A stretch of 64,000 nucleotides of DNA from Patescibacteria group bacterium (GCA_943355005.1 CALRDV010000003.1:72590-136589); one strand, 5' to 3'. Counted from the stretch's first letter, positions 776-46,826 are shown. Made by a program: numbers and translations. The notes: generated by a model not told the origin, from the letters alone.

Positions 776-1885
776 ATGGCTACAAAAGCTAAAGAAGTTG
801 CGGTCACAACCAAAAAAGAGACCAAACCCGCCGTCGTTAAAAACTCTGGCGAGGTAAAGAAAGTAGTTAAGAAGACAGCAGTTAAGAAACCCGCCGTCGT
901 TAAAAACTCTGGCGAGGCAAAGAAAACCGTTAAGAAAACAGCTGTTAAGAAACCCGCCGTCGTCAAAGACTCTGGCGAGACGAAGAAGGCTGTTCCGAAA
1001 AAAGCTCCCGTAAAGAAGATTGTGAAGAAATCTGACAAGAGTGAGATTGCCAGGTCGAGTACTCCTCGCAATGACGATTTGGGGATGGATTCCGGGTCTG
1101 AGCCCGGAATGACAGATGAAGTGAAGATTGAGAAAACAAAAGTAGAGGAGAAGAAAGTTGAAGTAGTCAAAAAAGAATATCCTAGAACAGAAACATCTAT
1201 TGAAGAGCTTTTTGAAGCCGGTGCCCATTTTGGCCACGTGGTCAAAAAATGGAATCCTAAGATGAAAAAATATCTTTGGGGAGCCAAGAACGGTATTCAT
1301 ATTTTCGATCTTGAGAAAACAGTCGCAGGAGTTAATGAAGCTACCAAGGCTTTGACCGAGATGGCTGCTGCAGGAAAGAGAATTGTTCTTGTTGGAACCA
1401 AGAGACAGGTGAGAGCTATGGTGGAGGAAGAGGCCAAGAGACTCAATATCCCTTACATAACTCAGCGCTGGATGGGTGGATTAATCACCAACTGGAAACA
1501 ACTCAAGCTCACTTTGGACAGATTGAATTCTTTGAAATCCAAGAGAGAGTTGGGACAGCTAAAGAAATACACCAAGAAGGAACAGCTTTTATTCGATAAA
1601 GAGATCAATAAGCTTGAGAGAATCGTCGGTGGTATTGCTTCTCTTAGGGAAGCCCCTGAAGTGGTAGTCGTTTTCGATACCCACAAAGAGAAATTGGCTG
1701 TCAAAGAAGCTTCCAGTCGTGGAGTTCAAGTGGTCGGCTTGGTAGATTCCAATGCAAACCCTGATCCGATTGATTACTTAATCCCTATGAATGATGACTC
1801 TGCCAAAGGTTTGGAAATCTTGGTGAGAGTTCTTGGACAGGCGATTGAGAATGGACAGAAAGCAAAGAAGGAAGTTAAGAATTAA
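776..1885 (+). CDS. rpsB: 30S ribosomal protein S2 with a ~130 aa Lys/Ala/Val-rich N-terminal extension.
   Basis: The C-terminal 240 aa match the S2 core (EAGAHFGH...WNPKM...IFDLEKT). The extension is built from 63-bp tandem repeats plus codons from an embedded hairpin repeat. An alternative start at Met 1109 would give a canonical-length S2. Confidence 0.9.
   Translation: MATKAKEVAVTTKKETKPAVVKNSGEVKKVVKKTAVKKPAVVKNSGEAKKTVKKTAVKKPAVVKDSGETKKAVPKKAPVKKIVKKSDKSEIARSSTPRNDDLGMDSGSEPGMTDEVKIEKTKVEEKKVEVVKKEYPRTETSIEELFEAGAHFGHVVKKWNPKMKKYLWGAKNGIHIFDLEKTVAGVNEATKALTEMAAAGKRIVLVGTKRQVRAMVEEEAKRLNIPYITQRWMGGLITNWKQLKLTLDRLNSLKSKRELGQLKKYTKKEQLLFDKEINKLERIVGGIASLREAPEVVVVFDTHKEKLAVKEASSRGVQVVGLVDSNANPDPIDYLIPMNDDSAKGLEILVRVLGQAIENGQKAKKEVKN
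824..1012 (+). repeat. Three tandem copies of a 63-bp repeat (aaacccgccgtcgttaaaaactctggcgag...) encoding KPAVVKNSGE-KK-VKKTAVK units.
   Basis: Copies begin at 824, 887 and 950 with exact 63-nt periodicity. Seen directly. Confidence 0.85.
1046..1114 (+). repeat. Composite hairpin repeat (attgccaggtcgagtactcctcgcaatgac + ggattccgggtctgagcccggaatgaca) inside the rpsB reading frame.
   Basis: The sequence matches intergenic units at 5227, 27036, 2408 and 38017. The rpsB ORF stays open through it. Confidence 0.8.
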
Positions 1886-1895
1886 GGAATTTATT

Positions 1896-1927
1896 TATAT
1901 AGATTCCCGATCAGGTCGGGAATGACA
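1896..1927 (+). repeat. Hairpin repeat unit, type A (tatagattcccgatcaggtcgggaatgaca).
   Basis: The same 30-mer occurs at 25316 and 36182. Confidence 0.85.
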
Positions 1928-1946
1928 TTAATTAAACATAAAGAAT

Positions 1947-2399
1947 ATGATGGACAAGATTAAAGAATTAAGAGAAAAGACCGGCGCCGGTATTATGGAC
2001 GCTAAGAAAGCTTTGGAAGAAGCCAACGGTGATATGGCCAAGGCCATGGACATCATCAAGGCTAAGGGGATTCTGAAGGCTGAGAGTAAGGCTGACCGAG
2101 AAGTCCGCAGTGGTCGTGTTTACTGTTACACACACGGAGGTGGTTCAGCTGCAGCCATGGTAGAAGTGGCTTGCGAAACCGACTTTGTAGCTAAGACTCC
2201 TGAGTTCGAAACACTTTGCAAAGAGATTGCAATGCAAATTGTATCTATGGACCCAAAAACAGTAGAAGAACTGATGAAGCAGGATTATATCCGCGATGGC
2301 AGTAAAACGATGGATGCTTTGGTCAAGGAGCTTTCGGGTAAAACCGGTGAAAACATCCGCGTGACCAGATTTGCTAGATTTAAATTAGGAGTTGAGTAA
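1947..2399 (+). CDS. tsf: Elongation factor Ts (short form, 150 aa).
   Basis: N-terminal EF-Ts UBA-like motif (IKELREKTGAGIMDAKKALEEANGDM) and conserved rpsB-tsf synteny. Confidence 0.85.
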   Translation: MMDKIKELREKTGAGIMDAKKALEEANGDMAKAMDIIKAKGILKAESKADREVRSGRVYCYTHGGGSAAAMVEVACETDFVAKTPEFETLCKEIAMQIVSMDPKTVEELMKQDYIRDGSKTMDALVKELSGKTGENIRVTRFARFKLGVE

Positions 2400-2407
2400 T
2401 ATTTAGA

Positions 2408-2438
2408 TTCTGGATTCCGGGTCAAGCCCGGAATGACA
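2408..2438 (+). repeat. Hairpin repeat unit, type B (tctggattccgggtcaagcccggaatgaca).
   Basis: Member of the GGAATGACA-ended repeat family. Confidence 0.8.
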
Positions 2439-2465
2439 GATAAAAAAATGTTTTGTTATAAAAAA

Positions 2466-2489
2466 TCCCCCCCGCCATGGCGGGGGGGA
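2466..2489. terminator. Bidirectional rho-independent terminator between tsf and the convergent membrane gene.
   Basis: Hairpin tccccccgccatggcgggggggat flanked by an A-run and a T-run. Confidence 0.7.
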
Positions 2490-2513
2490 TTTGGGTTTGA
2501 TGCGATTGTGAGA

Positions 2514-3224
2514 TTATTGATTTCGGTAACGGCCTGGTTCAAGCTGAAGTAGTGCATCCCCGGTTTCTGCGTCGACGTAGGGGGCCGCTTCGCTGTAACC
2601 TGCGTTGTTAGCTGCAAGATATTTTGCCCTTGCCCTTGGGTCTTCAAAAAGGAACTGTGCCTCTTTGACGAGCCCTGCAATATTCGAACTTTGTTCCAGT
2701 TGTCTGTCCAATGTTGGTCCCGAAAAGGCACCCTTCGTGACTGTCATGGTAATCATTCTGCCTGTTCGGGGGTCGGGAAGCTGGAGCTTGACGCTATCTG
2801 CTTTTTTGACTCCGTAACCACGGTTCATGCCGTAAGCGATAACCGCGAGAACACCAATAAGTACTACGGCGACAATCGCCACAATGATAATGGTAAGGCC
2901 GTATCGGGGATTAGTGGCGTACATGTACATAGACAGAGTGATTATGCCTACAAGAACGCTTGAGGCAAAGCCGCTCCATGTCTTGCCGAAGTACATAACT
3001 CCAAAGGAAACTATTCCTACGACAAAATAGAACATCAAGCTTTGACCGTACTCCGGATGAGACATGTAGAAAGCCAAACCGGTTAAGATAACGCTGATAA
3101 GAAAGCTGGCTACCAGCCCGGTCAAAGACGCTTGGCTGATTTTGAAGATGACGGTTGTGAGAATGACAATTAGAACGCCAAATAAAAGTATATATAGCCG
3201 GGGATCATTCAAGGTTATGGGCAT
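2514..3224 (-). CDS. Hypothetical membrane protein with four N-terminal TM helices and a soluble C-terminal domain.
   Basis: 236 aa ORF with hydrophobic segments. Confidence 0.6.
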   Translation of the reverse strand: MPITLNDPRLYILLFGVLIVILTTVIFKISQASLTGLVASFLISVILTGLAFYMSHPEYGQSLMFYFVVGIVSFGVMYFGKTWSGFASSVLVGIITLSMYMYATNPRYGLTIIIVAIVAVVLIGVLAVIAYGMNRGYGVKKADSVKLQLPDPRTGRMITMTVTKGAFSGPTLDRQLEQSSNIAGLVKEAQFLFEDPRARAKYLAANNAGYSEAAPYVDAETGDALLQLEPGRYRNQ

Positions 3225-3412
3225 TTATTCCTCCAAGTTGATGGATTTAGTTTTTAAAGAAAACTTATAGTTCGATTATATATCTAATAGGCACGATGTC
3301 AACAAATCAAGCTCATAAATACCCTATAACTTGACAATGTGCCCAAAATATGGTATAAAGACGATGCAATATTGACAATTGACAGTAATAATCAAACATC
3401 CTTGGAGGTCCA

Positions 3413-3544
3413 ATGACATTTTACGATCGAAAGTTTGAAGGCTACAGTTTGTTCCTTCTGATTTTTGGAGTCCTCAACCTCGGAAACCACGGACTAGGAC
3501 TTGTCTTTATATATTTAGCTTTTAAGTTTAGCAAGCCCGCATAA
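3413..3544 (+). CDS. Small hydrophobic protein of 43 aa, not in the ORF track.
   Basis: ATG preceded by GGAGG at -8. Encodes MTFYDRKFEGYSLFLLIFGVLNLGNHGLGLVFIYLAFKFSKPA and is followed by a hairpin terminator at 3548-3575. Consensus-like promoters lie upstream (TTGACA at 3332). Confidence 0.35.
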   Translation: MTFYDRKFEGYSLFLLIFGVLNLGNHGLGLVFIYLAFKFSKPA

Positions 3545-3625
3545 AAAGTGGGACCTTAGTAAGGTCCTATTTTAATAACTACTTAGGTTATAATGTGAAC
3601 GCAAATTGATATAAGGAGATAACTT

Positions 3626-4141
3626 ATGGCTGATATGAAGTTGTTGGAGAAATTGCCGGAAATTTGTGATGTCGATGAACTGCACACGTTGCTTTGTGAG
3701 AACGAGGCGCTTATCGTCGCATTTACCGGCAAGGAAGATATTGGGATCATGCTCAAGAAATTCTACGAAGAGCAAGTGGCTGGTGCTCGAACTTCGGATC
3801 GGGGCATACAGTTTTCCAAAGAGGGTGCCCGGGTTTGGAATGACGATACCGTCAAAAGCAAAAAAGCTGTCAACCCGCGGGATGTCGTGCTTGGACTGTA
3901 CTTGGCGATCGAAGCACTCGAGCTCGGTCATGGGCGGGACAAGCCTGGAGTAATTGGTCACGGGAGACTGCCAGAAATTTGTTCATTCAAATACATGACT
4001 TTCACGGTTGAGTCTTACGCAATCTATCCCATGTTTGATTGGAAAGATGCCCACTTCACGGCTAATGAACAGAATGAAGTGGTTGGATGGATAAGAGCCG
4101 GAAGAGACAAGATATCAGATCGTGATAAGTTCGTCGCTTAA
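3626..4141 (+). CDS. Hypothetical protein.
   Basis: 171 aa ORF with an upstream TATAAT and a downstream terminator. Confidence 0.6.
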   Translation: MADMKLLEKLPEICDVDELHTLLCENEALIVAFTGKEDIGIMLKKFYEEQVAGARTSDRGIQFSKEGARVWNDDTVKSKKAVNPRDVVLGLYLAIEALELGHGRDKPGVIGHGRLPEICSFKYMTFTVESYAIYPMFDWKDAHFTANEQNEVVGWIRAGRDKISDRDKFVA

Positions 4142-4149
4142 GTATTATT

Positions 4150-4177
4150 AGACCTACATTCGTGTAGGTCTTTTTTG
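4150..4177 (+). terminator. Rho-independent terminator.
   Basis: Hairpin agacctacattcgtgtaggtct followed by tttttt. Confidence 0.7.
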
Positions 4178-4202
4178 TGGGGTAATGTTAGAATAAGTTT
4201 AT

Positions 4203-4766
4203 ATGGTATTAGAACATGAGCTCATCCAACTATTAAGACAAAAGTTTGCCAAAGTAATCGAAGTGGTCGAGGAGGACTTTGCCACGGTCCGAGTGGGCAG
4301 AGCAAAACCAGAATTGGTTTCCGGAATTTCTGTGCCGGCATATGGCACATGGATGAAGCTGGTGGAAGTGGCGACAATCACGGCGCCGGACACCAATATG
4401 CTTATTGTGACGCCATTCGATAGAAGTTTGCTTGGAGCGGTCGAGAAGGCAATAAGTGATAGTGAGATGCAGCTTTCCGGAGTAGTAAATGGAGACTTAA
4501 TCCGTATCGTGATTCCGTCGCTGACACAAGAAAGAAGATTGGATTTTGTAAAACTACTCAAGCAGAAGACAGAGTCAGGGAAAATAATGCTAAGACAGGC
4601 TAGGCAGGATATTAAGGAGAAAATTGATGCTCTCAAGGAGATGAAAGAAGTATCTGAAGACGATATCTATATGCTTCTGGCCGACTTGGATAAAATTACG
4701 GGAGAGTTCAATGAGAAGATTGAGGAGATGAGTAGGAAAAAAGAAGATGAAGTGATGGCGGTTTAA
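4203..4766 (+). CDS. frr: Ribosome recycling factor.
   Basis: 187 aa with the RRF pattern (VRVGRAKPELVSGISVPAYG...IPSLTQERRLDFVKLLKQ). Confidence 0.9.
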   Translation: MVLEHELIQLLRQKFAKVIEVVEEDFATVRVGRAKPELVSGISVPAYGTWMKLVEVATITAPDTNMLIVTPFDRSLLGAVEKAISDSEMQLSGVVNGDLIRIVIPSLTQERRLDFVKLLKQKTESGKIMLRQARQDIKEKIDALKEMKEVSEDDIYMLLADLDKITGEFNEKIEEMSRKKEDEVMAV

Positions 4767-4777
4767 TTGTTTATTTT

Positions 4778-4808
4778 TCTGGATCCCGGATCAGGTCCGG
4801 GATGACAG
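4778..4808 (+). repeat. Hairpin repeat unit, type C (tctggatcccggatcaggtccgggatgaca).
   Basis: Member of the repeat family. Confidence 0.8.
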
Positions 4809-4813
4809 GCTTA

Positions 4814-5206
4814 TTAGTTGGAGAAGGCGAGTTTTTCTAGCTTGGTGACACGGTTTTTAGTAGTTTCGTGATCTTCTTTGAGTTCGTTTATAACCGAGAC
4901 TATGTTTTTGTTCATACCTTCCATTTGTTGTTGAAAATCTTTTAGTGTTTCTATAATTTCGATTTGTCCTTCTTTGAGCTCTTTTTGTCCTTCTTCTAAT
5001 TTGTATTGACCTTCTTTAAGTAGTGATAGTTGATTTTGAACATCGGTAAATCCAAATGCAGTTCGAGCTTCAGATTCGTCTAGATCTTCTTTGGTAGAGA
5101 GCTTTGAAACCTCGTTTGCCAGATCTTCTTTGGTAGCAAAGTTCTTCAAATCTTCTTTGGTGGCAAAAACATCTTTTAGTTTTTCGATGTCTTTATTGGT
5201 GATCAT
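4814..5206 (-). CDS. Hypothetical coiled-coil protein with three ATKEDLK repeats.
   Basis: 130 aa ORF. The nucleotide repeat atcttctttggtagc occurs three times. Confidence 0.55.
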   Translation of the reverse strand: MITNKDIEKLKDVFATKEDLKNFATKEDLANEVSKLSTKEDLDESEARTAFGFTDVQNQLSLLKEGQYKLEEGQKELKEGQIEIIETLKDFQQQMEGMNKNIVSVINELKEDHETTKNRVTKLEKLAFSN

Positions 5207-5226
5207 TGCTTAATATTAACAATTTT

Positions 5227-5258
5227 AGATTGCCACGTCGAGTACTCCTCGCAATGAC
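5227..5258 (+). repeat. Hairpin repeat unit, type E (gattgccacgtcgagtactcctcgcaatgacgg).
   Basis: Near-identical to the units inside rpsB (1046) and nadA (27036). Confidence 0.8.
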
Positions 5259-5280
5259 GGATGTTACTTGGTAAGATTGA

Positions 5281-6366
5281 TTGATGCAAATAATCGTGTT
5301 TATCTTAATGTTGTCAGTTTTGGTTCTTATCCACGAACTTGGTCATTTCTTGATGGCTAGACTTTTTAAGATGAGAGTTGAGGAGTTTGGAATTGGAATC
5401 CCACCTAGAGCCAAGAAGCTTTTTACACACAAGGGGACTCTGTTTAGTTTGAATTGGTTGCCCATTGGTGGTTTTGTAAAGCTTTATGGTGAGGATATGG
5501 ACGATCCGTCACAAGCTAGTTCTCCGGAGGCTTTTTTTAATAAGCCAATATGGCAAAGGGCGGGAGTGCTGGTAGCTGGAGTTACCATGAACTTTCTCTT
5601 AGGTGTCTTTGCTTTTGGGGTGGTTTACACCGTACTTGGTATTCCTACCAAAACAGATAAAGTAATTGTGGTGGATGTGGGTAAGGGGACGCCGGCCGAG
5701 ACTGCAGGAATTAAGATAGGAAGTGAAATCAAGAAAATTACTTTTGGAAATGAAGAGATTGTTTTTGTTGGTGTAGATGGTTTTATTAAGGCAGTAGAGC
5801 CACTAAAAGGTAAAACCATTGATATAACTACCCTGGTAAAAGACGGTACCGAAGAAGTTGTCGAAATAGTGCCAAGACTAGATCCTCCACAAGGACAAGG
5901 TGCTCTCGGTGTAGCTCTATCGAATATTGAAATGAAAATGTATCCTATATGGCAAAGACCTTTTCGAGGTATAGTCGTCGGAATGGAAGAGGCCTGGTCC
6001 TGGGGCAAAGAAATTGCGTCGAGTATGGGAACTTTGATTTGGGGGATTTTGACCGGCAAAGGTGTGCCAAAAGATGTATCCGGCCCGATTGGAATTTATC
6101 AAGTAAGTAAACAGGTTTATTCGGTGGGTTGGATTGCGGTGATTCAGTTTATGGCAATTCTCTCGATAAACTTAGCAATCTTGAATATTATGCCTTTCCC
6201 GGCGCTTGATGGTGGAAGAGTATTCTTCTTATTTGTCGAGAAAATTATTGGCAAGAAATATAAAAATAGAATTGAAGGTTATGTACATACTGTGGGTATG
6301 ATTTTCTTGATTGGCCTCATGGTGCTAGTTACTGTAAGAGATGTTATACATTTAATTAGGCCATAG
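5281..6366 (+). CDS. rseP: RIP site-2 metalloprotease (M50 family, RseP-like) with a PDZ domain.
   Basis: HELGHF zinc motif near the N-terminus, a central PDZ-like region, and the C-terminal NIMPFPALDGGRV motif. Confidence 0.85.
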   Translation: MMQIIVFILMLSVLVLIHELGHFLMARLFKMRVEEFGIGIPPRAKKLFTHKGTLFSLNWLPIGGFVKLYGEDMDDPSQASSPEAFFNKPIWQRAGVLVAGVTMNFLLGVFAFGVVYTVLGIPTKTDKVIVVDVGKGTPAETAGIKIGSEIKKITFGNEEIVFVGVDGFIKAVEPLKGKTIDITTLVKDGTEEVVEIVPRLDPPQGQGALGVALSNIEMKMYPIWQRPFRGIVVGMEEAWSWGKEIASSMGTLIWGILTGKGVPKDVSGPIGIYQVSKQVYSVGWIAVIQFMAILSINLAILNIMPFPALDGGRVFFLFVEKIIGKKYKNRIEGYVHTVGMIFLIGLMVLVTVRDVIHLIRP

Positions 6367-6370
6367 AAGT

Positions 6371-7108
6371 ATGACTATTAGTGAAGATGAACATGGATTT
6401 ACTGTCGAAAAAAGTGAAAAAGAGATACCCTTAAGTTCAATTCATGGGGAAGGTGTCAAAATCAAAGTTTACGAGATAACAAATAAACAGGTAGGCGGAG
6501 CAGATGCTAAAAGTCACATTGTGGGAAGATTTGTAAGTAAAGATGGTTTTGAGAGTAGTGAAAATATTCCTATGTTTGTAAAGCAGGCTAAGGTCAACGA
6601 AGAGTATTTTGGTGGTGAAAAAGAAGGTATGTCTGCAGCCGAAAGGTATTTTGAAAGATGGAAGTTTCTAAGAGATTTGGGGGTTCCTGTAGTTCCTAAT
6701 GTTGTGGTTTTAGATGGGGGGAGGGTTGCGATGACAAATCTAGGAATTAATGGTTCTGAATTTTTTGGAAAAGCATGGAGACATGGTCCAAAAGCAAACA
6801 GAAATTCAGGACGCCGAGAGCTATCAAAAGCCGAACAAGCTGTTTTGTCAATTAGTGATAAAAAGGTAATGTCTGAGATGGCAAGAATTAGGGACATTTT
6901 GGTCAAGGAAAAAATTCGTTTACCATATGACGATCCGTTTGATTTCTTAGTTCACCCAGATGGAAGCTTTGAAATCTTGGTCCATGATCCTGAAGCTTTG
7001 GAGTGGGGGGAATATGATAATTCAAAAAAAGACAAAGAAGATCCTCTTCTTTTAGAGCCTATACATCTAAGATTACTTAAAGAAGAGCTTGAAGATTTGA
7101 GTCTTTAG
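6371..7108 (+). CDS. Hypothetical protein, paralog A of a tandem pair.
   Basis: 245 aa. Shares ERYFERWKFLRDLGVP and DDPFDFLVHPDGSFEILV blocks with the ORF at 7330..8034. Confidence 0.6.
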   Translation: MTISEDEHGFTVEKSEKEIPLSSIHGEGVKIKVYEITNKQVGGADAKSHIVGRFVSKDGFESSENIPMFVKQAKVNEEYFGGEKEGMSAAERYFERWKFLRDLGVPVVPNVVVLDGGRVAMTNLGINGSEFFGKAWRHGPKANRNSGRRELSKAEQAVLSISDKKVMSEMARIRDILVKEKIRLPYDDPFDFLVHPDGSFEILVHDPEALEWGEYDNSKKDKEDPLLLEPIHLRLLKEELEDLSL

Positions 7109-7137
7109 ATTAAAATTTATAAATTGACAATCAGATG

Positions 7138-7245
7138 AAAGATTCGAATTGCTTGTTTTGCAAAATTGTTGCCGGGGAGGAGCCGTGTGAGAAGGTTTTG
7201 GAGAATGAAGGCTCCACGAATACTTTAGTTGTAACGCTAGTAACG
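7138..7245 (+). pseudogene. Truncated duplicate of the 5' end of the HIT gene (MKDSNCLFCKIVAGEEPCEKVLENE...).
   Basis: About 75 nt are nearly identical to 8043-8120. The downstream frame degenerates and stops quickly. Confidence 0.6.
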
Positions 7246-7329
7246 GTGAGAAATGTAATTCGTTTGATACGCCTATAAAGTAAATATGTAGTATAATATG
7301 TCTTATGGGTCTAATAAGTAAATATTATC

Positions 7330-10610: not shown

Positions 10611-10700
10611 CTGTCATTCTGAACTCGATTCAGAATCCAGAAATACCTGGATGTCCCTCACCAGATCGGGACTTTCAGCCCTATCAGGTCCGGCATGACA
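10611..10700 (+). repeat. Composite hairpin repeat: a type D unit (gtcattctgaactcgattcagaatcc) followed by a type C unit carrying an internal ~27-nt insertion.
   Basis: Same arrangement as 27746-27812. Confidence 0.8.
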
Positions 10701-17299: not shown

Positions 17300-18997
17300 C
17301 TATATTTTTCTTAGTTGATTGTTTTCTATGACGTGGGTGACTCCGAGGGATTTTAGTTTGAAAATAATTTCGGGATTTAGGCCGTATGCGTTTATATTTT
17401 CGACCATGTCAATCCAGTCTTTTGTGGCGAAGCCGGAGAATCCGCCCAAGCGACGGTGTTTGTGAAACAGGGAGTATAAGGAACGAACAGATTCAATTTC
17501 GTGATCCGGCATGTTCCAGAGTTTGATAGGAAGTTCCAGTATGATATCGTCTGAGGGTAGATTTTTAACTTCTTGATATACGGGATGCATATTTATATTT
17601 ACTGGGTAACCTTTGAGAGGTAGGTCGGCTTCCAGAAACAAAAATGAAAGTATAAGTAGTATAAATGTAAATTTTGTCTTGGCAGCGAGATTCTTGAAAA
17701 TGGGAACTAGCTTGTAGCCGATAATGATTACTGCTGCGAGTAATGCGAGGAGGATGAAGCGGCTGGGAGTGCGGAAGCCGGTGAAGCCTGGGAAGAGGTA
17801 ATAGAAAAGGGCGTACGGAAGGGGAGTGGGGAAGCTAAATATTCGAAGATTTTTGCCGAATATCTTGAGGACTGGGCCGAGGGACATGATAAGGGAGAAG
17901 AATAAAATATATTTCCAGGGATCAAAAATATGGCGTTTCGGACCGCGCCAAAGAAATTGCGTTAAGTATTTCTTCAATGTCATTCCGGGCTTGACCCGGA
18001 ATCTATATAAATAAAATCCGCTAATTCTGGATTCCGGCTCGGTGGCCGGAATGACGACTTTTCTGTTTAGCCTGGATTGCCACGCCTTTTGAAATAGGCT
18101 CTCAATGACAAGAGTTGTGATAAAAAGAGTAATTACTGTCCGGCTGTGATATTTGGTGAAGATTTCGTCCAATCCTAGTGAGAAGGCGGCGGCGTCGCGG
18201 ATGGGTCGGGTGGCTTCGGGAAATTGTAAATGAAGCTGGAGATATGGAAAGAGTAAAGATATCCAGAGTGGAAGAATGAAAATGAATTGAATTAGAATTT
18301 TTAGAAACTGCTCTTTCTTTCTCCAAAACAGACAAAAACAAGCGAAAAAGATTAAGTAAAAGGTAAAAATGCTTTCAGCTAATTGGGCCGTACTGGAGAG
18401 CAGAACAAGTGTAAGAAAGATATTTTTGTCTGTGTCTTGGTATCTGAGGTAGAAATAGATGGTTAGGATAGTGAGCCAAAGTGAGAAAATTTGTAAATGG
18501 GGTAAGTAGGATAGGTGGAAGCCGGTAAAATTGAAAAGAATTGTAGCCAATAACGTAACCCAGTGATCCTTGAATAAATAGTTAAAAAGTAGGTATGAGC
18601 TAATGATGGTCAGGAGGAAATTAGTGATTAAAGCAACGTTAAAAATTAATACCGGGTGATTGGTCAGAGCTCGAAATGGGAGGGTTATTATGGATGTAGT
18701 CAAAAAGAGGTCGGAATAGGTAAGGGTGTCTTTCTCCGGGGCGAAAAAAGTGCCAGAATATAGAGGTTTGTGCTCGATTAAGTTGTTTTGAACTTGACCG
18801 ATGATATAAGCAATGAGACGAGTGTCGTTGTTGTCCGGTAGGATGTCCTTGGGGTAGATAAAAGCCGACGGATAAACAAATAATATTAGAAGTATCGAAA
18901 AAATGCTGATGATAAGCCACTTTCTGACCTGCAAGGAGAGTCCTTGCAGGTAAATAGGGGTATGGGGATTCATGGCTAGAGTATAGCAGTGATACAA
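17300..18997 (-). CDS. Large polytopic membrane protein. A GT-C-type glycosyltransferase-like fold is possible but not verified.
   Basis: 565 aa with many TM segments. A composite hairpin repeat is embedded in-frame at 17979-18085. Confidence 0.7.
   Translation of the reverse strand: MYHCYTLAMNPHTPIYLQGLSLQVRKWLIISIFSILLILFVYPSAFIYPKDILPDNNDTRLIAYIIGQVQNNLIEHKPLYSGTFFAPEKDTLTYSDLFLTTSIITLPFRALTNHPVLIFNVALITNFLLTIISSYLLFNYLFKDHWVTLLATILFNFTGFHLSYLPHLQIFSLWLTILTIYFYLRYQDTDKNIFLTLVLLSSTAQLAESIFTFYLIFFACFCLFWRKKEQFLKILIQFIFILPLWISLLFPYLQLHLQFPEATRPIRDAAAFSLGLDEIFTKYHSRTVITLFITTLVIESLFQKAWQSRLNRKVVIPATEPESRISGFYLYRFRVKPGMTLKKYLTQFLWRGPKRHIFDPWKYILFFSLIMSLGPVLKIFGKNLRIFSFPTPLPYALFYYLFPGFTGFRTPSRFILLALLAAVIIIGYKLVPIFKNLAAKTKFTFILLILSFLFLEADLPLKGYPVNINMHPVYQEVKNLPSDDIILELPIKLWNMPDHEIESVRSLYSLFHKHRRLGGFSGFATKDWIDMVENINAYGLNPEIIFKLKSLGVTHVIENNQLRKI
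17979..18085. repeat. Composite hairpin repeat: reverse type B unit, forward type B unit, then a partial type E unit, all inside the membrane protein CDS.
   Basis: tgtcattccgggcttgacccggaatctatata ... ctggattccggctcggtggccggaatgacgac ... ggattgccacg. Confidence 0.8.
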
Positions 18998-23902: not shown

Positions 23903-23945
23903 CTTGGATTGCCACGACCCGCCGTGGCGGGTCTCGCAATGACTG
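23894..23945 (+). repeat. Hairpin repeat, type E variant with a GC-rich stem (ggattgccacgacccgccgtggcgggtctcgcaatgac).
   Basis: ATTGC...GCAATGAC ends are shared with the other type E units. It probably acts as the cysS terminator. Confidence 0.7.
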
Positions 23946-24997: not shown

Positions 24998-26590
24998 TCA
25001 AGACTCCCGGTAGTGGCAGCCGATGGATTTTGGGTTCGCATAAGCAGCTTTAGCCACGATTAGGGAGACTAAGACCATGTTTCTGAGGCCTAATAATTCA
25101 TCTGACAGGGTGGCTTCCCGATAGAACTTGTTGATGGTGTTCTCCATTTGTGACAGATCCGAGATGGCTCTTTCGAGAAGTGGGGTTTTTCGAACCAATC
25201 CGACCATGTTCCACATGATGTTTTTTACCGTGTTTGCATCGGCGGACATGAGGGCGCTGTCAGCGGGGAATTTTTTGAAGTAGTTCCAAGAGGGGACGTC
25301 TGAGGAGTTTATTTTTATAGATTCCCGATCAGGTCGGGAATGACAAAATGTATTGGTAATGGATTTGGCGGCGCGGGAGCCAAACACGAGACCTTCCAGA
25401 AGGGAGGTGCTAGCCAGACGATTGCCACCGTGTAACCCCGTGCAAGAGATTTCGCCCACAGCATAAAGATTTTTTATGGATGATTTGCCAACGAGGTCTG
25501 TCAAAATTCCACCGCACATATAATGAGCGGCCGGAGAAACAGGGATGAGGTTTGTCGTAATATCTATTCCATATTTGAGACAGCTTTCATGAATCATGGG
25601 AAAATGTTTCAATATTTCTTCTTTGGAAATATAAGACTTTAAGTCCAGATATACATTTGAAGCTCCTGTCTCCAGCATTTCGGTAAAGATAGCTCTCGAG
25701 ACCTTGTCGCGGGTGGTAAGGTCTGGTTTGTCCAATTCCGGATAGTATTTTTGCATAAAAGGAATACCTTGTGAATTTGTTAGACGCGCACCTTCTCCGC
25801 GGACTGCCTCACTAATAAGGAATGGTGGAGCTCCGGTAATTTTTAAAGCGGTTGGGTGAAATTGTTCGTATTCCATATTTAGTAGCTTTGCTCCGGCACG
25901 ATAAGCCATAGCGATGCCATCTCCTCTAGCTCCTTTGGGGTTCGTAGTAAATGCAAAGATTTGGCCGTTACCACCGCTGGCTAGAATAGTAGTTTTTGCC
26001 AAAATTCTGGAAATAATGCCGTCTGCTTGATCGAAGGCGTATACCCCAACACAAGTATCGGTGCCATATTTATTCAACCAGTTATTGGTTTGGTGACCGG
26101 TAGTTATTAAGTCGACCGCAGTTAGATGATCAAAAATAGTAACGTTGCTTAATTTTTTTAAAGATTCGGTGAGATGTTCTTGAATGGATCTACCCGTAAA
26201 ATCAGAAACTTTAGCGACTCGTGGTTCTTTGTGGCCGCCCTCAAGAGCATAGGATAAATTTCCGTCTTTCTCCTTGTCAAAGGGAACGTTTGCGATTTCC
26301 AGTAATATTTTGTCTACTAAGGCAGGTCCTTCGTCAGCTAAGATTTGAGCGGCTTCAGGAAGTCCAATTCCATCGGCTGATTTTAGGATATCTTCGACTA
26401 GGTCCGGGCCACCTTTGGCAATGATGCCACCTTGGGCATAATTGGTATTTGATTCGTTTGGAGTTTCGGCTCTGGTTAATATTATTATTTTGATGGTCGG
26501 ATCCTGTTTGCTAATTTCGATAGCGGCAGTTGCTCCTGCAATGCCGGTGCCAATGATGAGTATGTCTGCTGTGAGGAGTTCTTGTTTCAT
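24998..26590 (-). CDS. nadB: L-aspartate oxidase.
   Basis: 530 aa with the FAD-binding N-terminus DILIIGTGIAGATAA. In an operon with nadA and nadC. Contains an in-frame type A repeat at 25316-25345. Confidence 0.9.
   Translation of the reverse strand: MKQELLTADILIIGTGIAGATAAIEISKQDPTIKIIILTRAETPNESNTNYAQGGIIAKGGPDLVEDILKSADGIGLPEAAQILADEGPALVDKILLEIANVPFDKEKDGNLSYALEGGHKEPRVAKVSDFTGRSIQEHLTESLKKLSNVTIFDHLTAVDLITTGHQTNNWLNKYGTDTCVGVYAFDQADGIISRILAKTTILASGGNGQIFAFTTNPKGARGDGIAMAYRAGAKLLNMEYEQFHPTALKITGAPPFLISEAVRGEGARLTNSQGIPFMQKYYPELDKPDLTTRDKVSRAIFTEMLETGASNVYLDLKSYISKEEILKHFPMIHESCLKYGIDITTNLIPVSPAAHYMCGGILTDLVGKSSIKNLYAVGEISCTGLHGGNRLASTSLLEGLVFGSRAAKSITNTFCHSRPDRESIKINSSDVPSWNYFKKFPADSALMSADANTVKNIMWNMVGLVRKTPLLERAISDLSQMENTINKFYREATLSDELLGLRNMVLVSLIVAKAAYANPKSIGCHYRES
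25316..25345 (+). repeat. Type A hairpin repeat (tatagattcccgatcaggtcgggaatgaca) inside the nadB coding sequence.
   Basis: Identical 30-mer to those at 1898 and 36182. Translated in nadB as TFCHSRPDRESIKI. Confidence 0.85.
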
Positions 26591-26591
26591 A

Positions 26592-27752
26592 TTATTTAAT
26601 GGCGATCATACGGCGAATTGGTAATTCTGCTTTGGCTCTGAGACCTTCTGGGACGGTGATTTCATACTGCATGTTTTCCAAAGCTTCAATAACTGTTTCC
26701 AGATTGTTTTGGGCCATGTGGGGACATCTTTTCTGGATAGAGCAAACTTGTAAAACGTTCTTGTGTTTGGCAGCCAGCATTTCGACCATGGCGCACTCTG
26801 TAAAGAAGGCAACTGGTCTATCTTGGACATCTTGTTTCTCTATATTTTTAATCATCTCACCGGTGGAGCCGGCAAAATCTACTTCAGCGATAACTTCTGG
26901 TGGGCATTCAGGGTGAGCCATGATGTAGACACCGGGAAAATCTTTCCTAAGTTCAATCGCGTCTTTTGGGGTGAATTTCTCATGAACTTCGCATTTTCCT
27001 TCCCAGGCGATGAAGAGGATATTGGGAGAACCTTTGTGGAGTGAGATTGCCACGTCGCGCTGCTCCTCGCAATGACGGATGTTTGATTCTGCTGAAGCGG
27101 ACGTGTCGGGGAAAAATATATCGGCACCCATATCTCGAGCGACATTTTGGGCTAAGAATTTATCGGGTAGAAAGATGACTGTATTTGTTTTCCACTCTTT
27201 GAGTGCCCACTCGACAACCTTTCGAGCATTGCCGGAAGCACAGCAGACATCAACTTCAGATTTGGTATCGGCATCTGTGTTTACATAGGCGACCACGGGA
27301 ACTCCGGGGAACATAGCTTTCAATTTGCGGACATCCGCTCCGGTAATACTGGAAGCAAGTGAACATCCAGCTTTCAGAGAAGGTATGAGCACTGTTTTGG
27401 TAGGGTTCAGTACTTTGGCGGTTTCTGCCATAAATTTGACTCCGAGAAATAAAATGAGATCTGCATCGGTTTCCGTTGCTTTACGGGATAATTCTAATGA
27501 ATCTCCGCGTATGCCTAAGACTTCGTCGCACTGCAAGTCCCAGGACATATAGTTGTGCTTTAGAATGACGGCTTTCTTTTCTCTCACTAGGCGATTGAGT
27601 TTTTCTACCTGACCGGCTTTGATCCATAGTTCGAAATCTGGACTGTAACCGGAATATTTTTCTTTGAAGAGGTCAAAAATTTCTTGTTGGGATAGGAGTG
27701 TAGTATTGTTAGTCATTATATTTTTATATTTGTATTTATTATCTTTTGTCAT
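26592..27752 (-). CDS. nadA: Quinolinate synthase.
   Basis: NadA pattern (ILKHNY ... GDSLELSRKATETDADLILFLGVKFMAETAKVLNP ... GCSLA). Contains an in-frame type E repeat at 27036-27071. Confidence 0.9.
   Translation of the reverse strand: MTKDNKYKYKNIMTNNTTLLSQQEIFDLFKEKYSGYSPDFELWIKAGQVEKLNRLVREKKAVILKHNYMSWDLQCDEVLGIRGDSLELSRKATETDADLILFLGVKFMAETAKVLNPTKTVLIPSLKAGCSLASSITGADVRKLKAMFPGVPVVAYVNTDADTKSEVDVCCASGNARKVVEWALKEWKTNTVIFLPDKFLAQNVARDMGADIFFPDTSASAESNIRHCEEQRDVAISLHKGSPNILFIAWEGKCEVHEKFTPKDAIELRKDFPGVYIMAHPECPPEVIAEVDFAGSTGEMIKNIEKQDVQDRPVAFFTECAMVEMLAAKHKNVLQVCSIQKRCPHMAQNNLETVIEALENMQYEITVPEGLRAKAELPIRRMIAIK
27036..27071 (+). repeat. Type E hairpin repeat (gagattgccacgtcgcgctgctcctcgcaatgacgg) inside the nadA coding sequence.
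   Basis: Translated in nadA as SNIRHCEEQRDVAIS. Homologous to the units at 1046 and 5227. Confidence 0.8.
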
Positions 27753-27812
27753 TCTGAACTTGATTCAGAATCCAGGATTTTCTGGATGCCGGATCGGGTC
27801 CGGCATGACAGA
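27746..27812 (+). repeat. Composite hairpin repeat (type D followed by type C) between nadA and nadC.
   Basis: tgtcattctgaacttgattcagaatccagg ... tctggatgccggatcgggtccggcatgaca. Confidence 0.8.
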
Positions 27813-30050: not shown

Positions 30051-31094
30051 ATGAGTTTAAAGGTGGGAATTGTGGGGTTACCAAATGTCGGGAAGTCGAC
30101 ACTGTTTAATGCTTTGTTAAAAAGGCAGCAGGCTTTGGTGGCAAATTACCCGTTTGCGACGATTGAGCCGAATGTAGGGATAGTAGAAGTGCCGGACGAA
30201 AGACTGAATGTTTTGGCAAAAATGTCCCAGAGTGTGAAAATCGTGCCAGCAACAGTGGAATTTGTGGATATTGCCGGTTTAGTGGCCGGGGCAGCGACCG
30301 GAGCGGGACTGGGTAATAAATTCTTGACTCATATTCGTGATGTGGATGTGATATTGCAAGTTTTAAGAGATTTTAAAGATTCCGAGATTGTGAAAGAGGG
30401 TAGTGTGGACCCCAAAACGGACTATGAAGTAATCGAAACCGAACTAATCTTGAAGGACTTAGAAACAGTTTCCAAAATACGGGAAAGTAAAGATCTAAGA
30501 CAAAAAGGCCTTGAGAAGAAAAGGGGAGTGGTGGAGAAACTTTTTGAGGGATTAAACAATGGACAGCCTGCAAGGACCATCCTTGCAGGTGAGGAGGTTG
30601 AGCTGGCTAGAGATTTGTTTCTCCTGACCATGAAAAAAGAGGTTAAGGTGTTTAATGTGAGTGAGATGGATCCCCGCATTCGCGAGGATGACAACGGAGA
30701 GTTCTGTGTTTGTGCAAAGATTGAGTCGGAGCTTTCAAGCTTGTCAGATGAAGACGCTAAAGCCTATATGGCTGATTTGGGGATTAAGGAATCCGGATTG
30801 GATAAGCTAATCAGGAAGGCCTACGAGACTCTAGGGCTTATTAGCTTCCTGACCACTGGAATCACTGAGAGCAGGGCTTGGACGATTGAGAAGGGGACTA
30901 AGGCACCCCAAGCAGCTGCTGTAATTCATACAGACTTTGAGAAGAAGTTTATCAAGGCTAAGGTTTGCGGCTATGACGATTTTGTGGCTTGTGGAGGCTG
31001 GAAGGAAGGGGTAGAAAAAGGGAAAGTCAGGTTTGAAGGTAAGGAATATGTAGTGAAGGATGGTGATGTGGTGGAGTTTATGGTTGGTGCTTAA
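30051..31094 (+). CDS. ychF: Ribosome-binding ATPase YchF (Obg family).
   Basis: G1 motif GIVGLPNVGKSTLFNAL and a TGS-like C-terminus. Carries two in-frame palindromic insertions at 30567 and 30668. Confidence 0.9.
   Translation: MSLKVGIVGLPNVGKSTLFNALLKRQQALVANYPFATIEPNVGIVEVPDERLNVLAKMSQSVKIVPATVEFVDIAGLVAGAATGAGLGNKFLTHIRDVDVILQVLRDFKDSEIVKEGSVDPKTDYEVIETELILKDLETVSKIRESKDLRQKGLEKKRGVVEKLFEGLNNGQPARTILAGEEVELARDLFLLTMKKEVKVFNVSEMDPRIREDDNGEFCVCAKIESELSSLSDEDAKAYMADLGIKESGLDKLIRKAYETLGLISFLTTGITESRAWTIEKGTKAPQAAAVIHTDFEKKFIKAKVCGYDDFVACGGWKEGVEKGKVRFEGKEYVVKDGDVVEFMVGA
30567..30591 (+). repeat. REP-type palindrome cctgcaaggaccatccttgcaggtg inside ychF, encoding PARTILAG.
   Basis: Same palindrome as the copies flanking the RAYT gene at 53.6-54.9 kb. 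Confidence 0.8.
30668..30693 (+). repeat. Hairpin repeat, type F (ggatccccgcattcgcgaggatgaca) inside ychF.
   Basis: Reverse complement of the unit at 36136-36163. Shares the CTGGAT...ATGACA ends with the family. Confidence 0.7.
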
Positions 31095-36135: not shown

Positions 36136-36211
36136 TGTCATCCTCGCGAATGCGGGGATCCAGATTTATTGTACTCATTTGTATAGATTCCCGATCAGGT
36201 CGGGAATGACA
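36136..36211 (+). repeat. Composite hairpin repeat: reverse type F unit followed by a type A unit.
   Basis: tgtcatcctcgcgaatgcggggatccag ... tatagattcccgatcaggtcgggaatgaca. Confidence 0.8.
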
Positions 36212-37980: not shown

Positions 37981-38046
37981 ATGTCATGCCGGACCTGATC
38001 CGACATCCAGGCTTTTCTGGATTCCGGGTCGTAGCCCGGAATGACA
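37981..38046 (+). repeat. Composite hairpin repeat: reverse type C unit followed by a type B unit.
   Basis: gtcatgccggacctgatccgacatccag ... tctggattccgggtcgtagcccggaatgaca. Confidence 0.8.
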
Positions 38047-38062: not shown

Positions 38063-38803
38063 TTAGATTACCTTGGCGGTGGAGAGGTAGTCTTTGCCTT
38101 CAAATTTTTTGGTAATGGCAAAAATGGAACTACCTGGCTTAATGTCGGTTATGACAATGGTTGATTTTTTGGTCAGGGTGTACAAGACCTCTTTACCTTC
38201 GATGCTAAGGCCAATTATTTTTTTCTTTGCATCTACGGAGGAAACTTTGGCAAAGATAGTTCCAGATACCATTGCTGATGGGTCTTCCTTGATGACAATA
38301 ATTCTTTTTGCCAGAATGATATCTTCTTTTAGTAAAGTGCCAATTACGATAATTTTGTCGGAGATGGCAATAGTGGTTAGTTTGCCGGGTTTGGCTTCTT
38401 TGATGTAGGCTGTTTTGTCATCTGTGGTTATTTGGATTAACGATTCGTCTTTGGAAGTTAGAGTGATGTTGCCCGAGTTTATGGATTTAACGTAACCAAC
38501 GTATCCCACCAAGGTTTTCTGATTTATTTTTTCTTTCAAGTTTGATTCGGTGGCAGTGAGATTTTCTTTTACAAGTGACTTAATTTTTTCCTGAATATCT
38601 TCGGTTTGAGATGGGGTGGCAGCTATCGTGGCTACTTTTTCTGTGGGAGTGGCGGAAGGGGTGGCAGTCTTGGTGGGGGTTGGGGAGGCGGCAAAAACGG
38701 TAGAGTTCGGAGTTACTGGATGGATTCCTGCCTTCGCAGGAATGACTATTGTTATGGATAATATTATTAAAATTGATAGTGCAACTAATTTTTTACTTTT
38801 CAT
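38063..38803 (-). CDS. Secreted hypothetical protein with a Pro/Thr-rich linker.
   Basis: Signal peptide followed by a PTPTKTATPSATPTEK linker. Confidence 0.6.
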   Translation of the reverse strand: MKSKKLVALSILIILSITIVIPAKAGIHPVTPNSTVFAASPTPTKTATPSATPTEKVATIAATPSQTEDIQEKIKSLVKENLTATESNLKEKINQKTLVGYVGYVKSINSGNITLTSKDESLIQITTDDKTAYIKEAKPGKLTTIAISDKIIVIGTLLKEDIILAKRIIVIKEDPSAMVSGTIFAKVSSVDAKKKIIGLSIEGKEVLYTLTKKSTIVITDIKPGSSIFAITKKFEGKDYLSTAKVI

Positions 38804-45161: not shown

Positions 45162-45531
45162 TAAAATCAAATTCCCTTTATCCGTGCTTAAACCGCTAAT
45201 TTCTTACCTCAAAGGTGAAGAAAAACGCTTAAAGGAAACTAAGAAAGAGCTAAAAAAGGAGGACCCTTTTATTGTTGGTAATCGAGACGAGGATAATTCG
45301 GTAGATTCCGACGTAGCCGAAAATGTCGAGCATGACAGAACTTTCGCAATGAGGAAGCAGGTAAGTCGCTCTATCATTGAAATCCGAAAAACACTAACCA
45401 GGATAAAGCTTGGAAAATACGGAATTTGTGCAAGTTGCGGAAAAATGATTGATACTGACAGGCTCGCCGTGAATCCTACTGCTGAGTTCTGTATGACCTG
45501 TGAAACTCAGATTGAAAAGAAGAGGGGATGA
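45148..45531 (+). CDS. DksA/TraR-family C4 zinc-finger protein.
   Basis: C-terminal CASCGKMIDTDRLAVNPTAEFCMTC. Confidence 0.7.
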   Translation: MEENNKIKFPLSVLKPLISYLKGEEKRLKETKKELKKEDPFIVGNRDEDNSVDSDVAENVEHDRTFAMRKQVSRSIIEIRKTLTRIKLGKYGICASCGKMIDTDRLAVNPTAEFCMTCETQIEKKRG

Positions 45532-45952
45532 AATAAAACAAAATCTGTTTAAAAAATATTTAATTCTGGCCATTAGTTCGAGTTTTGTAATACTTGATAT
45601 TTTTTTGCAGTCATATTTTCGCAATAGGGGATTGGGGATTGAAAATCGAGGTGTGTCTTTTGGAATTTTTTCAGGCTGGGGTCAGGGGATTGCAATTGTA
45701 GTTTTCTTTCTTTTTATTCTATTTTCCTCAAGGAGCTTTATAAAAGGGAAGTCTGACTTAGGGTTGTTGATGATTCTGATTGGGGGCCTGGGAAACTTGA
45801 TTCCCAGGTTGTTTCAGGGCGGTGTATGGGATTATATTTATTTGCCACTTTTGCCCTTTTGGTTTAATTTTTCGGATGTCATGATAACCGGTGGGGTATT
45901 TTTGTATGGATGGAGGGAGATTGCTTCAGCTCGAGTACGAGATTCGCAATGA
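45500..45952 (+). CDS. lspA: Lipoprotein signal peptidase II.
   Basis: LspA motifs GVSFGIF and GGLGNLIPR...WDYIYL...FNFSDVMITGGV. The last codons and the TGA stop lie inside a hairpin repeat. Confidence 0.8.
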   Translation: MKLRLKRRGDEIKQNLFKKYLILAISSSFVILDIFLQSYFRNRGLGIENRGVSFGIFSGWGQGIAIVVFFLFILFSSRSFIKGKSDLGLLMILIGGLGNLIPRLFQGGVWDYIYLPLLPFWFNFSDVMITGGVFLYGWREIASARVRDSQ

Positions 45953-45995
45953 CGGGAGGGTGGAGTGAGTCTCGCCAGGGCGGGAGACGGTGACT
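45935..45995 (+). repeat. Hairpin repeat, type E variant, followed by a GC-rich palindrome (gagtctcgccagggcgggagac).
   Basis: The unit cgagtacgagattcgcaatgacgg supplies the lspA stop codon (caaTGA). Confidence 0.65.
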
Positions 45996-46012
45996 GAGAC
46001 TATAATAGGCTA

Positions 46013-46747
46013 ATGGAAATCCCAATTCTATACGAAGACAAGGACACTCTGGTAATTAACAAGCCGGTAGATTTAGTCGTAAATAGAGCTAATTCCATAA
46101 AAGGAAGGACTGTTCAAGATTGGGTGGAAGGTCTGGAATGGTTTGATGAAGCCCAAAAAAAGGATGATGATTTGTTTAGACAAAGAAGTGGTGTATGTCA
46201 TCGTTTAGATAAGGAAACAAGTGGCTGTTTGCTGATTGCTAAAAACCCTAATGCTTTGAGATATTATTTGAGTCTTTTTAAAGAAAGAAAATTGACGAAG
46301 ACTTATATGGCTTTGGTTCATGGCCGGGTAGAGCCTGATCATGGTGAGACGGTACTTCCTCTACGGAGAAACTTGTTTAATAGAGAAAAGTGGCAGGTTC
46401 ATTATGAAGGAAAGAAAGCTATTACAGAATGGACAGTGGAGAAAAGATTTATCTATCAGGGTCATGAGCATTGGCGAGATGCTTTAACATTGCTAAGATT
46501 AAATTTGAAAACGGGTAGAACTCACCAAATTAGAGTACATCTATCTTTTTTGGGATGGCCTATCTTTGCTGACGACAAATATTTGAATCGAAAGTTTTCG
46601 CGGGAGGATAGAAAGTATTTGTTTCACCATTTTCTCCATGCAGAACAAATTTCTTTTATTTCCTTTTCCGGTGATAGGGTAGATGTGCACGCTCCAGTGC
46701 CAAGTGATTGTGAAAAACTTCTAAGTTCGTTAATTGAAGAAACGTAA
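46013..46747 (+). CDS. RluA-family pseudouridine synthase (RluD/RluC-like).
   Basis: Catalytic motif HRLDKETSGCLLIAK. Confidence 0.85.
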   Translation: MEIPILYEDKDTLVINKPVDLVVNRANSIKGRTVQDWVEGLEWFDEAQKKDDDLFRQRSGVCHRLDKETSGCLLIAKNPNALRYYLSLFKERKLTKTYMALVHGRVEPDHGETVLPLRRNLFNREKWQVHYEGKKAITEWTVEKRFIYQGHEHWRDALTLLRLNLKTGRTHQIRVHLSFLGWPIFADDKYLNRKFSREDRKYLFHHFLHAEQISFISFSGDRVDVHAPVPSDCEKLLSSLIEET

Positions 46748-46749
46748 AA

Positions 46750-46826
46750 TGTCATTCCGGGCTGAGACCCGGAATCTATATGAATTTTCAAATTTCTGTA
46801 TCCCGGATCAAGTCCGGGATGACAAT
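46750..46826 (+). repeat. Composite hairpin repeat: reverse type B unit followed by a type C unit.
   Basis: gtcattccgggctgagacccggaatctatat ... tgtatcccggatcaagtccgggatgaca. Confidence 0.8.

Follow-up and report, generated by a model that had tools for sequence, protein, structure and literature searches.

The 64-kb stretch of bacterial DNA analysed here, hereafter the window (GCA_943355005.1, CALRDV010000003.1:72590-136589), carries 24 copies of a short hairpin repeat distributed over 18 loci. Judging from their sequence, these repeats are very probably Ssn-related motifs (SRM), the family that includes the NTS and dRS3 repeats of Neisseria. An earlier note on the same DNA had presented them as an uncharacterised system; they appear instead to belong with the NTS/SRM hairpins of the Ssn GIY-YIG nucleases, which act on single-stranded DNA (ssDNA). 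Chenal et al. (Nat Commun 2025, PMC11893778) described a longer oriented repeat, NTS (CGTCATTCCCGCGMAVGCGGGAATCYRG), that has dRS3 at its core, and generalised it as the SRM. SsnA, a 94-aa single-domain GIY-YIG nuclease, binds the hairpin as ssDNA only and on one strand only, does not bind RNA, and cuts a few nucleotides 5' of the hairpin; cleavage is governed by a GTC located 5' of the palindrome and binding by a C located 3' of it. The ssn genes are usually flanked by SRMs and, in Neisseria, the role of Ssn is to restrict incoming ssDNA during transformation (PMC11893778).

Architecture of the repeat and its likeness to Ssn-related motifs

Coordinates are counted on the window, and the repeats are described on the strand opposite to the one read in the earlier note. 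A scan anchored on GTCAT...ATC, with at most two stem mismatches, gave 21 matches, 20 of them true copies, against 0 to 3 (mean of about 1.2) in 30 shuffles. Looser scans contributed 23907-23943, 45919-45953 and 46799-46823, plus the degenerate copy 10669-10700. The whole set spans 1045-46823, and no copy was detected by the same scans in the final 17 kb of the window. A pattern reduced to the invariant bases matched 13 times in the window, for 0.34 matches expected. All 16 loci listed in the earlier note contain a copy, and the proposal of one superfamily with conserved ends was borne out, the asymmetric ends being best read on the opposite strand.

The unit is 25-37 bp long, within the 20-50 nt of the hairpin-forming SRM semi-palindromes, has defined ends, and is made of (T)GTCAT, an 8-bp stem whose two arms enclose a loop of 4-6 nt (longer in subtype E), and ATC(CAG/TAT). 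Alignment of 18 copies yielded the consensus TGTCATTCCGGACnTGATCCGGAATCCAGAAA, in which the G, T, C, A and T 5' of the stem are invariant, the first two stem pairs are invariant or nearly so, and the C trailing the palindrome is found in 17 copies; the five E-type copies all keep both the GTC and the trailing C. Over the 24 copies, the GTC is always intact and the flanking C is lost only from 46799-46823, where it is mutated to A. Perfect 8-bp stems characterise 14 of the 24 copies in the anchored scan, or 15 when 46799-46823 is counted. Within the stem, 99.3% of the cells are paired, compensatory changes occur at five of the eight pairs, and the observed score was reached by none of 500 shuffles. 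DNA folding of six copies of types A to F gave energies of -6.4 to -11 kcal/mol (z = -2.1 to -5.7), the result being less clear for the E-type copies (z = -0.2 to -3.3). Because of the stem pairing, the compensatory changes and the folding energies, we conclude that the hairpin is under selection.

Two classes of hairpin are present: the ATNCNNNN stems form subtypes A to D and F, and the ATTGCGA...GCAAT stems form subtype E. The distinct stem subtypes recognised in the earlier note are therefore real, since their arms co-vary as just described. The three 30-mers at 1898-1927, 25316-25345 and 36182-36211 are indeed identical. The arms of subtype A read ATTCCC-N9-GGGAAT, a design that had been likened to dRS3/REP2 elements. 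The dRS3 half of this comparison was a true lead, as the same arms form the palindromic core of NTS, although the spacing differs (the strict ATTCCC-N8-GGGAAT motif has no match in the window) and most subtypes have other stems; the window also has neither arrays of Neisseria intergenic mosaic elements (NIME) nor prophage junctions. REP2 is not related.

The published SRM expression, HGTCWYN(0-2)YYVSBRHN(0-5)WNVSBRGN(0-2)RNCYNB, had three strict matches in the window for 0.23 expected. With one substitution the matches rose to 15, of which 12 are family copies, for 4.35 expected; with two, specificity was gone (63 versus 54.7). In most copies the misfit concerns one stem position that the expression disallows. 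The bases conserved in the window are those critical in the published work, namely the GTC for cleavage and the trailing C for binding, and the copy at 38723-38746 is four substitutions away from the Neisseria NTS consensus. The likeness extends to the GTCAT-palindrome-ATCYRG layout, to a density class of hundreds per genome, to the bracketing of small single-domain GIY-YIG genes in other genomes (see below) and to a symbiont-like host lifestyle. The window family differs by its 8-bp stem and 4-6-nt loop, by the coexistence of two classes and no fewer than six stem subtypes within a single genome, by the share of copies lying in frame within open reading frames (ORFs), about a third versus 2% in N. 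meningitidis, and by its common gene-less doublets, no ssn gene being seen there. It differs also by its host, which belongs to a group absent from the discussion in PMC11893778: its YchF shares 86% identity with proteins carrying the name Candidatus Collierbacteria, and this identity places the host, on sequence grounds, in the Collierbacteria and so in the Patescibacteria (Candidate Phyla Radiation, CPR). The earlier view that the gene content is not Neisseria-like was thus correct.

GIY-YIG genes next to the hairpins in other genomes

The exact A-type 25-mer (GATTCCCGATCAGGTCGGGAATGAC) was searched in 185,579 species genomes and was found, identical, in at least 116 stretches from at least 15 phyla. 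Among the groups concerned are several CPR groups, Dehalococcoidia, Bacteroidales, Syntrophia, Gammaproteobacteria, Planctomycetota, Nitrospirota and Cloacimonadota. Since the same 25-mer is identical over such distances, the identity of the three 30-mers does not demonstrate the recent mobilisation that had been read into it. The A-type 25-mer also occurs in 23 IMG/VR viral contigs (L118-L140). Either horizontal spread or a constraint imposed by the enzyme may account for the identity of the 25-mer.

The ORFs of 116 loci (L001-L116), chosen by the 25-mer alone, were clustered without prior assumption. A recurrent cluster of small ORFs, fourth-ranked by locus number, was present in five of them. 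Four of its members are GIY-YIG proteins of the 95-aa class (PF01541, E of about 1e-14 to 1e-18); the remaining one (L064) is a GIY-YIG protein more distantly related to them (E = 7e-12 with the hidden Markov model, HMM), and its gene has none of these hairpins at its flanks. The GIY-YIG gene of L011, L027 and L061 starts about 5 nt past one hairpin and ends 2-5 nt ahead of another. The upstream hairpin of L011 and L061, GTCATTCCCGCGAAAGCGGGAAT, matches the Neisseria NTS, perfectly and up to the trailing ATCCAG in L061, with an ATCCAC ending in L011, and the downstream hairpin is of the window's A type. The catalytic residues Y7, Y18 and E65 of the 95-aa protein line up with Y6, Y17 and E64 of the 94-aa SsnA. 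The protein family is a very large and well-conserved one: it has at least 7998 hits, most of them 95 aa long, and identity ranges from 70 to 100% among the 120 matches listed. A search of the PDB with the Ssn-like protein returned only spurious WD40 matches and a weak UPF0213 match, and no model specific to it was found in NCBIfam.

Other hairpin types also adjoin such genes. An ssn gene is flanked by a B-type hairpin in L250. A Paceibacterota metagenome-assembled genome (MAG), L141, has two GIY-YIG paralogs 2 kb apart, one flanked by ATTCC-type hairpins, and the other, from a second GIY-YIG clade, by E-type hairpins on both sides; the second clade is likewise bracketed by E-type hairpins in a Pseudomonadales MAG (L076). 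In view of these two cases, subtype E is the partner of the second Ssn clade in other genomes, and presumably also in the window's own genome. E-type units often hold an inner GC hairpin, ACCCGCC..GGCGGGT (23907-23943 in the window, about 1095-1135 in L076, and L141). At the 3' end of cysS, the relatives L142 (2760-2860) and L143 (1600-1700) have this inner hairpin only, which in the window is enclosed by E-type arms. The idea that the cysS copy consists of hairpin arms placed around a native terminator was set aside, as the same inner hairpin is found in the E-type units of L076 and L141; this copy may simply be a subtype.

That the repeats are ordinary intrinsic terminators, or stem-loops regulating at the RNA level, would agree with their stable folds and with the position of many of them right 3' of a stop codon (tsf, frr, cysS, ybeY and a rluD-like gene). 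We nevertheless find it very unlikely. The 23 terminator-like sites of 1-20000 include none of the eight copies of that region, where hairpin plus T-run terminators are found in their own right nearby; the copies have no T-run past the stem on either strand, their flanks being GACA and CCAGAAA, and some lie in frame within nadA, nadB and ychF. The asymmetric flanks and the 25-mer shared by at least 15 phyla point to recognition by a protein, and SsnA does not bind RNA.

Several observations count against the assignment to the SRM. The published expression is exactly satisfied by 3 of the 24 copies only. No ssn gene or fragment was found in the 64-kb window (Pfam on all ORFs, a six-frame regular expression, and a family HMM on six-frame translations), and, of 120 metagenome loci selected with the B type as seed, a single one had an ssn gene. 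The GIY-YIG protein is a candidate member of cd10448 (CDD) and a putative homolog of Neisseria SsnA, Pfam giving PF01541 only. Binding and cutting of the hairpins by Ssn in this lineage are predictions, the biochemistry being that of the published work. Finally, altering the stem while keeping a hairpin abolishes cutting by Neisseria SsnA (PMC11893778), so that a genome with at least six stem subtypes would need several enzymes, a relaxed specificity or many inactive copies.

Such points also bear on the idea that the copies are relics: the ssn gene or genes would have been lost, no enzyme would act now, and the hairpins would be neutral or mildly selected leftovers. Besides the missing gene, there are degenerate copies (10669-10700, the C-to-A change at 46799-46823, and one or two stem mismatches in E-type copies), a decayed nadA remnant in L142, and the fact that 19% of SRM-rich genomes have no detectable homolog (PMC11893778). 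We consider this explanation unlikely, in view of the number of perfect stems, of a GTC intact throughout and a flanking C kept in all copies but one, and of the three identical 30-mers. Moreover, with a genome of about 1 Mb, the 64 kb of the window amount to a minor fraction, and little can be concluded from the absence of ssn there.

Doublets, in-frame copies and turnover among relatives

Returning to the copies as SRMs, their arrangement is of two kinds, single or in doublets (Table 1). The six doublets of the window are all head-to-head, NTS(+)-spacer-NTS(-), with the GTC ends outward, the ATCCAG ends inward, and TGTCAT...ATGACA as termini. The hairpins on either side of ssn genes are placed in exactly this way, the doublets lacking only the gene. 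In 236 foreign loci, adjacent pairs on opposite strands were 84 in the +/- order and 16 in the -/+ order, and doublets of the 36137-36210 kind (F+A or NTS+A) were seen again in a Pseudomonadales MAG, Collierbacteria, Gottesmanbacteria and other MAGs, some of them from other phyla. Since they share the cassette geometry, the doublets are best read as gene-less, REPIN-like ssn cassettes. The suggestion of a system resembling miniature inverted-repeat transposable elements (MITEs) is retained to this extent, that the head-to-head pairs look like gene-less MITE/REPIN-like units; no target-site duplication is visible at the doublets or at the junctions in relatives, where a divergence of about 14% at the protein level blurs the junctions. 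Like repetitive extragenic palindromes (REPs) and REPINs, the SRMs are short extragenic hairpins recognised as ssDNA; their inverted doublets copy the arrangement found around the enzyme gene, and one enzyme gene serves many gene-less copies. Unlike them, they have a hydrolytic GIY-YIG nuclease and not an HUH tyrosine transposase as partner, and the window hairpins are without a GTAG-type 5' tetranucleotide.

The in-frame copies occupy variable parts of proteins. NadA has, relative to solved structures, a 32-aa insert that holds the E hairpin 27045-27076 and that is absent in L143 and reduced to the decayed remnant in L142. In NadB, also aligned to solved structures, the A hairpin 25320-25344 lies in a linker 8 aa longer than that of E. 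coli NadB. The F hairpin 30669-30692 falls in a variable loop of YchF, and in 120 orthologs this loop had no hairpin, or an F-type (MDPRLREDD), B-type (LDSGSEPGMT) or E-type (...RNDV) one. The L142 ortholog of the ORF read through doublet 2 (17300-18997, minus strand) is called as one 599-aa gene. Rickettsia palindromic elements (RPEs) are palindromic repeats of 100-150 bp which a symbiont with a reduced genome tolerates in frame in its essential protein-coding genes; they are not known to have an enzyme partner. The window repeats resemble RPEs in being in frame inside essential genes and differ by their size of 25-37 bp and their defined asymmetric ends.

Three relatives syntenic with the window (L142, L143 and L144) had 0, 3 or 1 copies, against about 11 in the window, with one doublet in common. 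No copy is present in 21 kb of L142. In L143, the nadA-nadC doublet is at the orthologous site and ychF has a B-type copy, the other copies being missing; in L142 the nadA-nadC doublet site is empty. The prfA-rpmE spacer has an E-type copy in L144 and L142 where the window has its F+A doublet. Thus some orthologous sites are empty and others are filled by other hairpin types; as relatives differ at the same sites in both presence and type, copies appear, disappear or are exchanged as species diverge.

All 12 single copies (1045-45953) have the strand that Ssn would cleave on the minus, C-rich, strand, whatever the direction of the gene, and the single copies of relatives (one each in L142, L143 and L144) are on the same strand as those of the window. 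The bias fits avoidance of cutting of the lagging-strand template. We keep it as a local observation and not as a general rule because elsewhere the lean is weak in one sample (69 of 116 genome loci, p = 0.05) and absent in the other (33 of 67 in a sample of 120 metagenome loci).

The mechanism that we propose would be as follows. The unit observed in the window, which from 5' to 3' consists of (T)GTCAT, an 8-bp stem with its first two pairs fixed, a loop, the second stem arm and ATC(CAG/TAT), is a strand-asymmetric DNA hairpin; on that strand only and as ssDNA, it would be bound by a single-domain GIY-YIG Ssn of about 95 aa and cut a few bases 5' of the GTC, as published for SsnA. The two hairpin classes would correspond to two Ssn clades, as seen in other genomes and presumably here. 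Singles and head-to-head doublets, which are dispersed over gene boundaries and, in frame, over variable gene loops, would come and go between close relatives, the doublets as ssn cassettes without gene, and their spread would depend on an Ssn provided in trans, encoded elsewhere in the genome or present in the past.

A broader reading, which we put forward as tentative, is that ssn cassettes might constitute a distinct class of mobile elements driven by a hydrolytic GIY-YIG ssDNA nuclease, of which doublets and singles would be non-autonomous, REPIN-like derivatives. In Patescibacteria they would spread so readily that copies would be fixed in frame again and again in loops of essential proteins (NadA, NadB, YchF and S2), with different Ssn clades acting on the different hairpin classes. 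The in-frame copies in nadA, nadB and ychF, the presence or absence of copies among close relatives and the 25-mer identical in at least 15 phyla are not in PMC11893778; the fixed doublet geometry and the match of two hairpin classes with two enzyme clades are likewise undescribed so far. The NTS/SRM-Ssn system, characterised until now only in Neisseria and a few Proteobacteria, is thus very probably abundant in a CPR lineage. This bears on a question left open by PMC11893778, the mobility of ssn cassettes and the way the hairpins multiplied, for which the doublet geometry, the class-clade match, the insertion differences and the tolerated in-frame copies are all relevant. It matters also for the annotation of Patescibacteria genomes, in which hairpin copies lead to ORFs that are spurious or extended and to unusual peptide motifs (for example LDSGSEPGMT, MDPRIREDD, RHCEEQRDVAIS).

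Catalogue of copies and other features of the window

Table 1. Hairpin copies in the window, all putative SRMs; the strand is the NTS strand, and a dot denotes a doublet with copies on both strands
Feature	Position	Strand	Context
Single E-type SRM hairpin (GTCATTGCGAG...CTGGCAATC)	1045..1075	-	Read in frame within the Lys-rich ORF that extends rpsB at its N-terminus, peptide EIARSSTPRND
Single B-type SRM hairpin (ATTCCGGG/CCCGGAAT)	1088..1113	-	Same rpsB extension ORF, peptide MDSGSEPGMT
A-type SRM hairpin	1902..1926	-	rpsB-tsf intergenic; within one of the three identical 30-mers
B-type SRM hairpin	2413..2437	-	Immediately 3' of the tsf stop codon
C-type SRM hairpin	4782..4806	-	3' of frr; strict match to the published SRM expression
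E-type SRM hairpin	5228..5258	-	Upstream of rseP (M50 peptidase)
Doublet 1	10613..10700	.	D-type 10613-10637 (+), degenerate copy 10669-10700 (-); between ybeY and next ORF
Doublet 2	17979..18055	.	17979-18003 (+), 18030-18055 (-); read through in frame by 565-aa membrane-protein ORF 17300-18997 (-)
E-type SRM	23907..23943	-	Loop is a GC-rich inner hairpin (ACCCGCC..GGCGGGT); directly 3' of the cysS stop codon (23900-23902)
A-type SRM	25320..25344	-	In frame in nadB, peptide HSRPDRESI
E-type SRM	27045..27076	-	In frame in nadA, peptide IRHCEEQRDVAIS
Doublet 3	27748..27809	.	27748-27772 (+), 27785-27809 (-); between nadA and nadC
F-type SRM	30669..30692	-	In frame in ychF, peptide MDPRIREDD
Doublet 4	36137..36210	.	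F-type 36137-36160 (+), A-type 36186-36210 (-); between prfA and rpmE
Doublet 5	37983..38045	.	37983-38007 (+), 38020-38045 (-); between EamA transporter gene and ORF 38063-38803
NTS-like SRM (GTCATTCCTGCGAAGGCAGGAATC)	38723..38746	-	In frame, close to the N-terminus encoded by ORF 38063-38803 (-), peptide VIPAKAGIH
E-type SRM	45919..45953	-	Spans the final codons and stop codon of lspA (45500-45952)
Doublet 6	46751..46823	.	B-type 46751-46776 (+), C-type 46799-46823 (-); between pseudouridine synthase gene and Na+/H+ exchanger gene

The window is a piece of bacterial chromosome (rpsB, tsf, frr, rseP, dnaX, recR, cysS, nadBAC, ychF, rpsF-ssb-rpsR, prfA, rpmE, dnaB, efp and gyrA), with a GC content of 40.8% and a GC skew that is strongly positive over its full length. 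Three tandem 63-nt coding repeats (KPAVVKNSGEVKKVVKKTAVK) occupy 824-1012, in the Lys-rich ORF of about 145 aa that is the putative N-terminal extension of ribosomal protein S2; the same ORF also reads through two SRM hairpins. At 1922-1951 and 10695-10722, just 5' of tsf and of ORF 10730, respectively, the ATGACA end of a hairpin was scored as -35-like, with a -10-like box 16-18 nt downstream. The hairpins may donate promoters, with the reserve that these are two scan hits in an AT-rich genome. A region of about 1.4 kb (51558-53006) contains a single short ORF (51812-52051) and has no Rfam match at the gathering threshold.

Two candidate partners of the hairpins had been named. One, a Xer-like gene (59360-60307), codes for a 315-aa tyrosine recombinase (PF00589) with a SAM-like and a catalytic domain. 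Its presence, and the use of dRS3 as a phage integration target in Neisseria (PMC11893778), could suggest that the repeats are attachment or recombination sites, either for this integrase or for a Piv/IS110-type enzyme as for dRS3 and the filamentous phages of Neisseria. We regard this as extremely improbable: there is no SRM copy within 12 kb of the gene, which looks like a housekeeping XerC/D from its sequence, no prophage border or integrated element adjoins the copies, and the recurrent neighbour that emerged from the assumption-free clustering is a GIY-YIG gene.

The other candidate was a RAYT. A RAYT-like Y1 transposase gene does exist at 53655-54362 (PF01797, E = 8e-8; NF047646, E = 2e-10, below its cutoff), and REPs, too, are short hairpins found in inverted doublets, so that the repeats could be REP elements mobilised by this transposase. 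However, the gene is bracketed by a different palindrome, CCTGCAAGGAnnnTCCTTGCAGG, with inverted copies at 53617 and 54363, and not by GTCAT-type hairpins; the nearest SRM copy is more than 6.8 kb away, the last one ending at 46823; and elsewhere hairpins of the window type adjoin GIY-YIG genes, not Y1 transposases. It is hardly conceivable that this gene is the partner. The second palindrome family, CCTGCAAGGA-nnn-TCCTTGCAGG, has seven copies (53617-54918, 18925-18950 and 30564-30589) and probably forms with the RAYT-like gene a separate REP/RAYT pair. Two of its copies are in frame inside the RAYT-like gene and one makes up the C-terminus of ORF 54359-54871 (minus strand). The copy at 30564-30589, in ychF, has a perfect 10-bp stem and encodes PARTILAG, which aligns without gap to conserved YchF sequence (GxPARxxLAG in orthologs), with no insertion relative to E. 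coli YchF: it is a copy of the repeat, yet it looks like native coding sequence.

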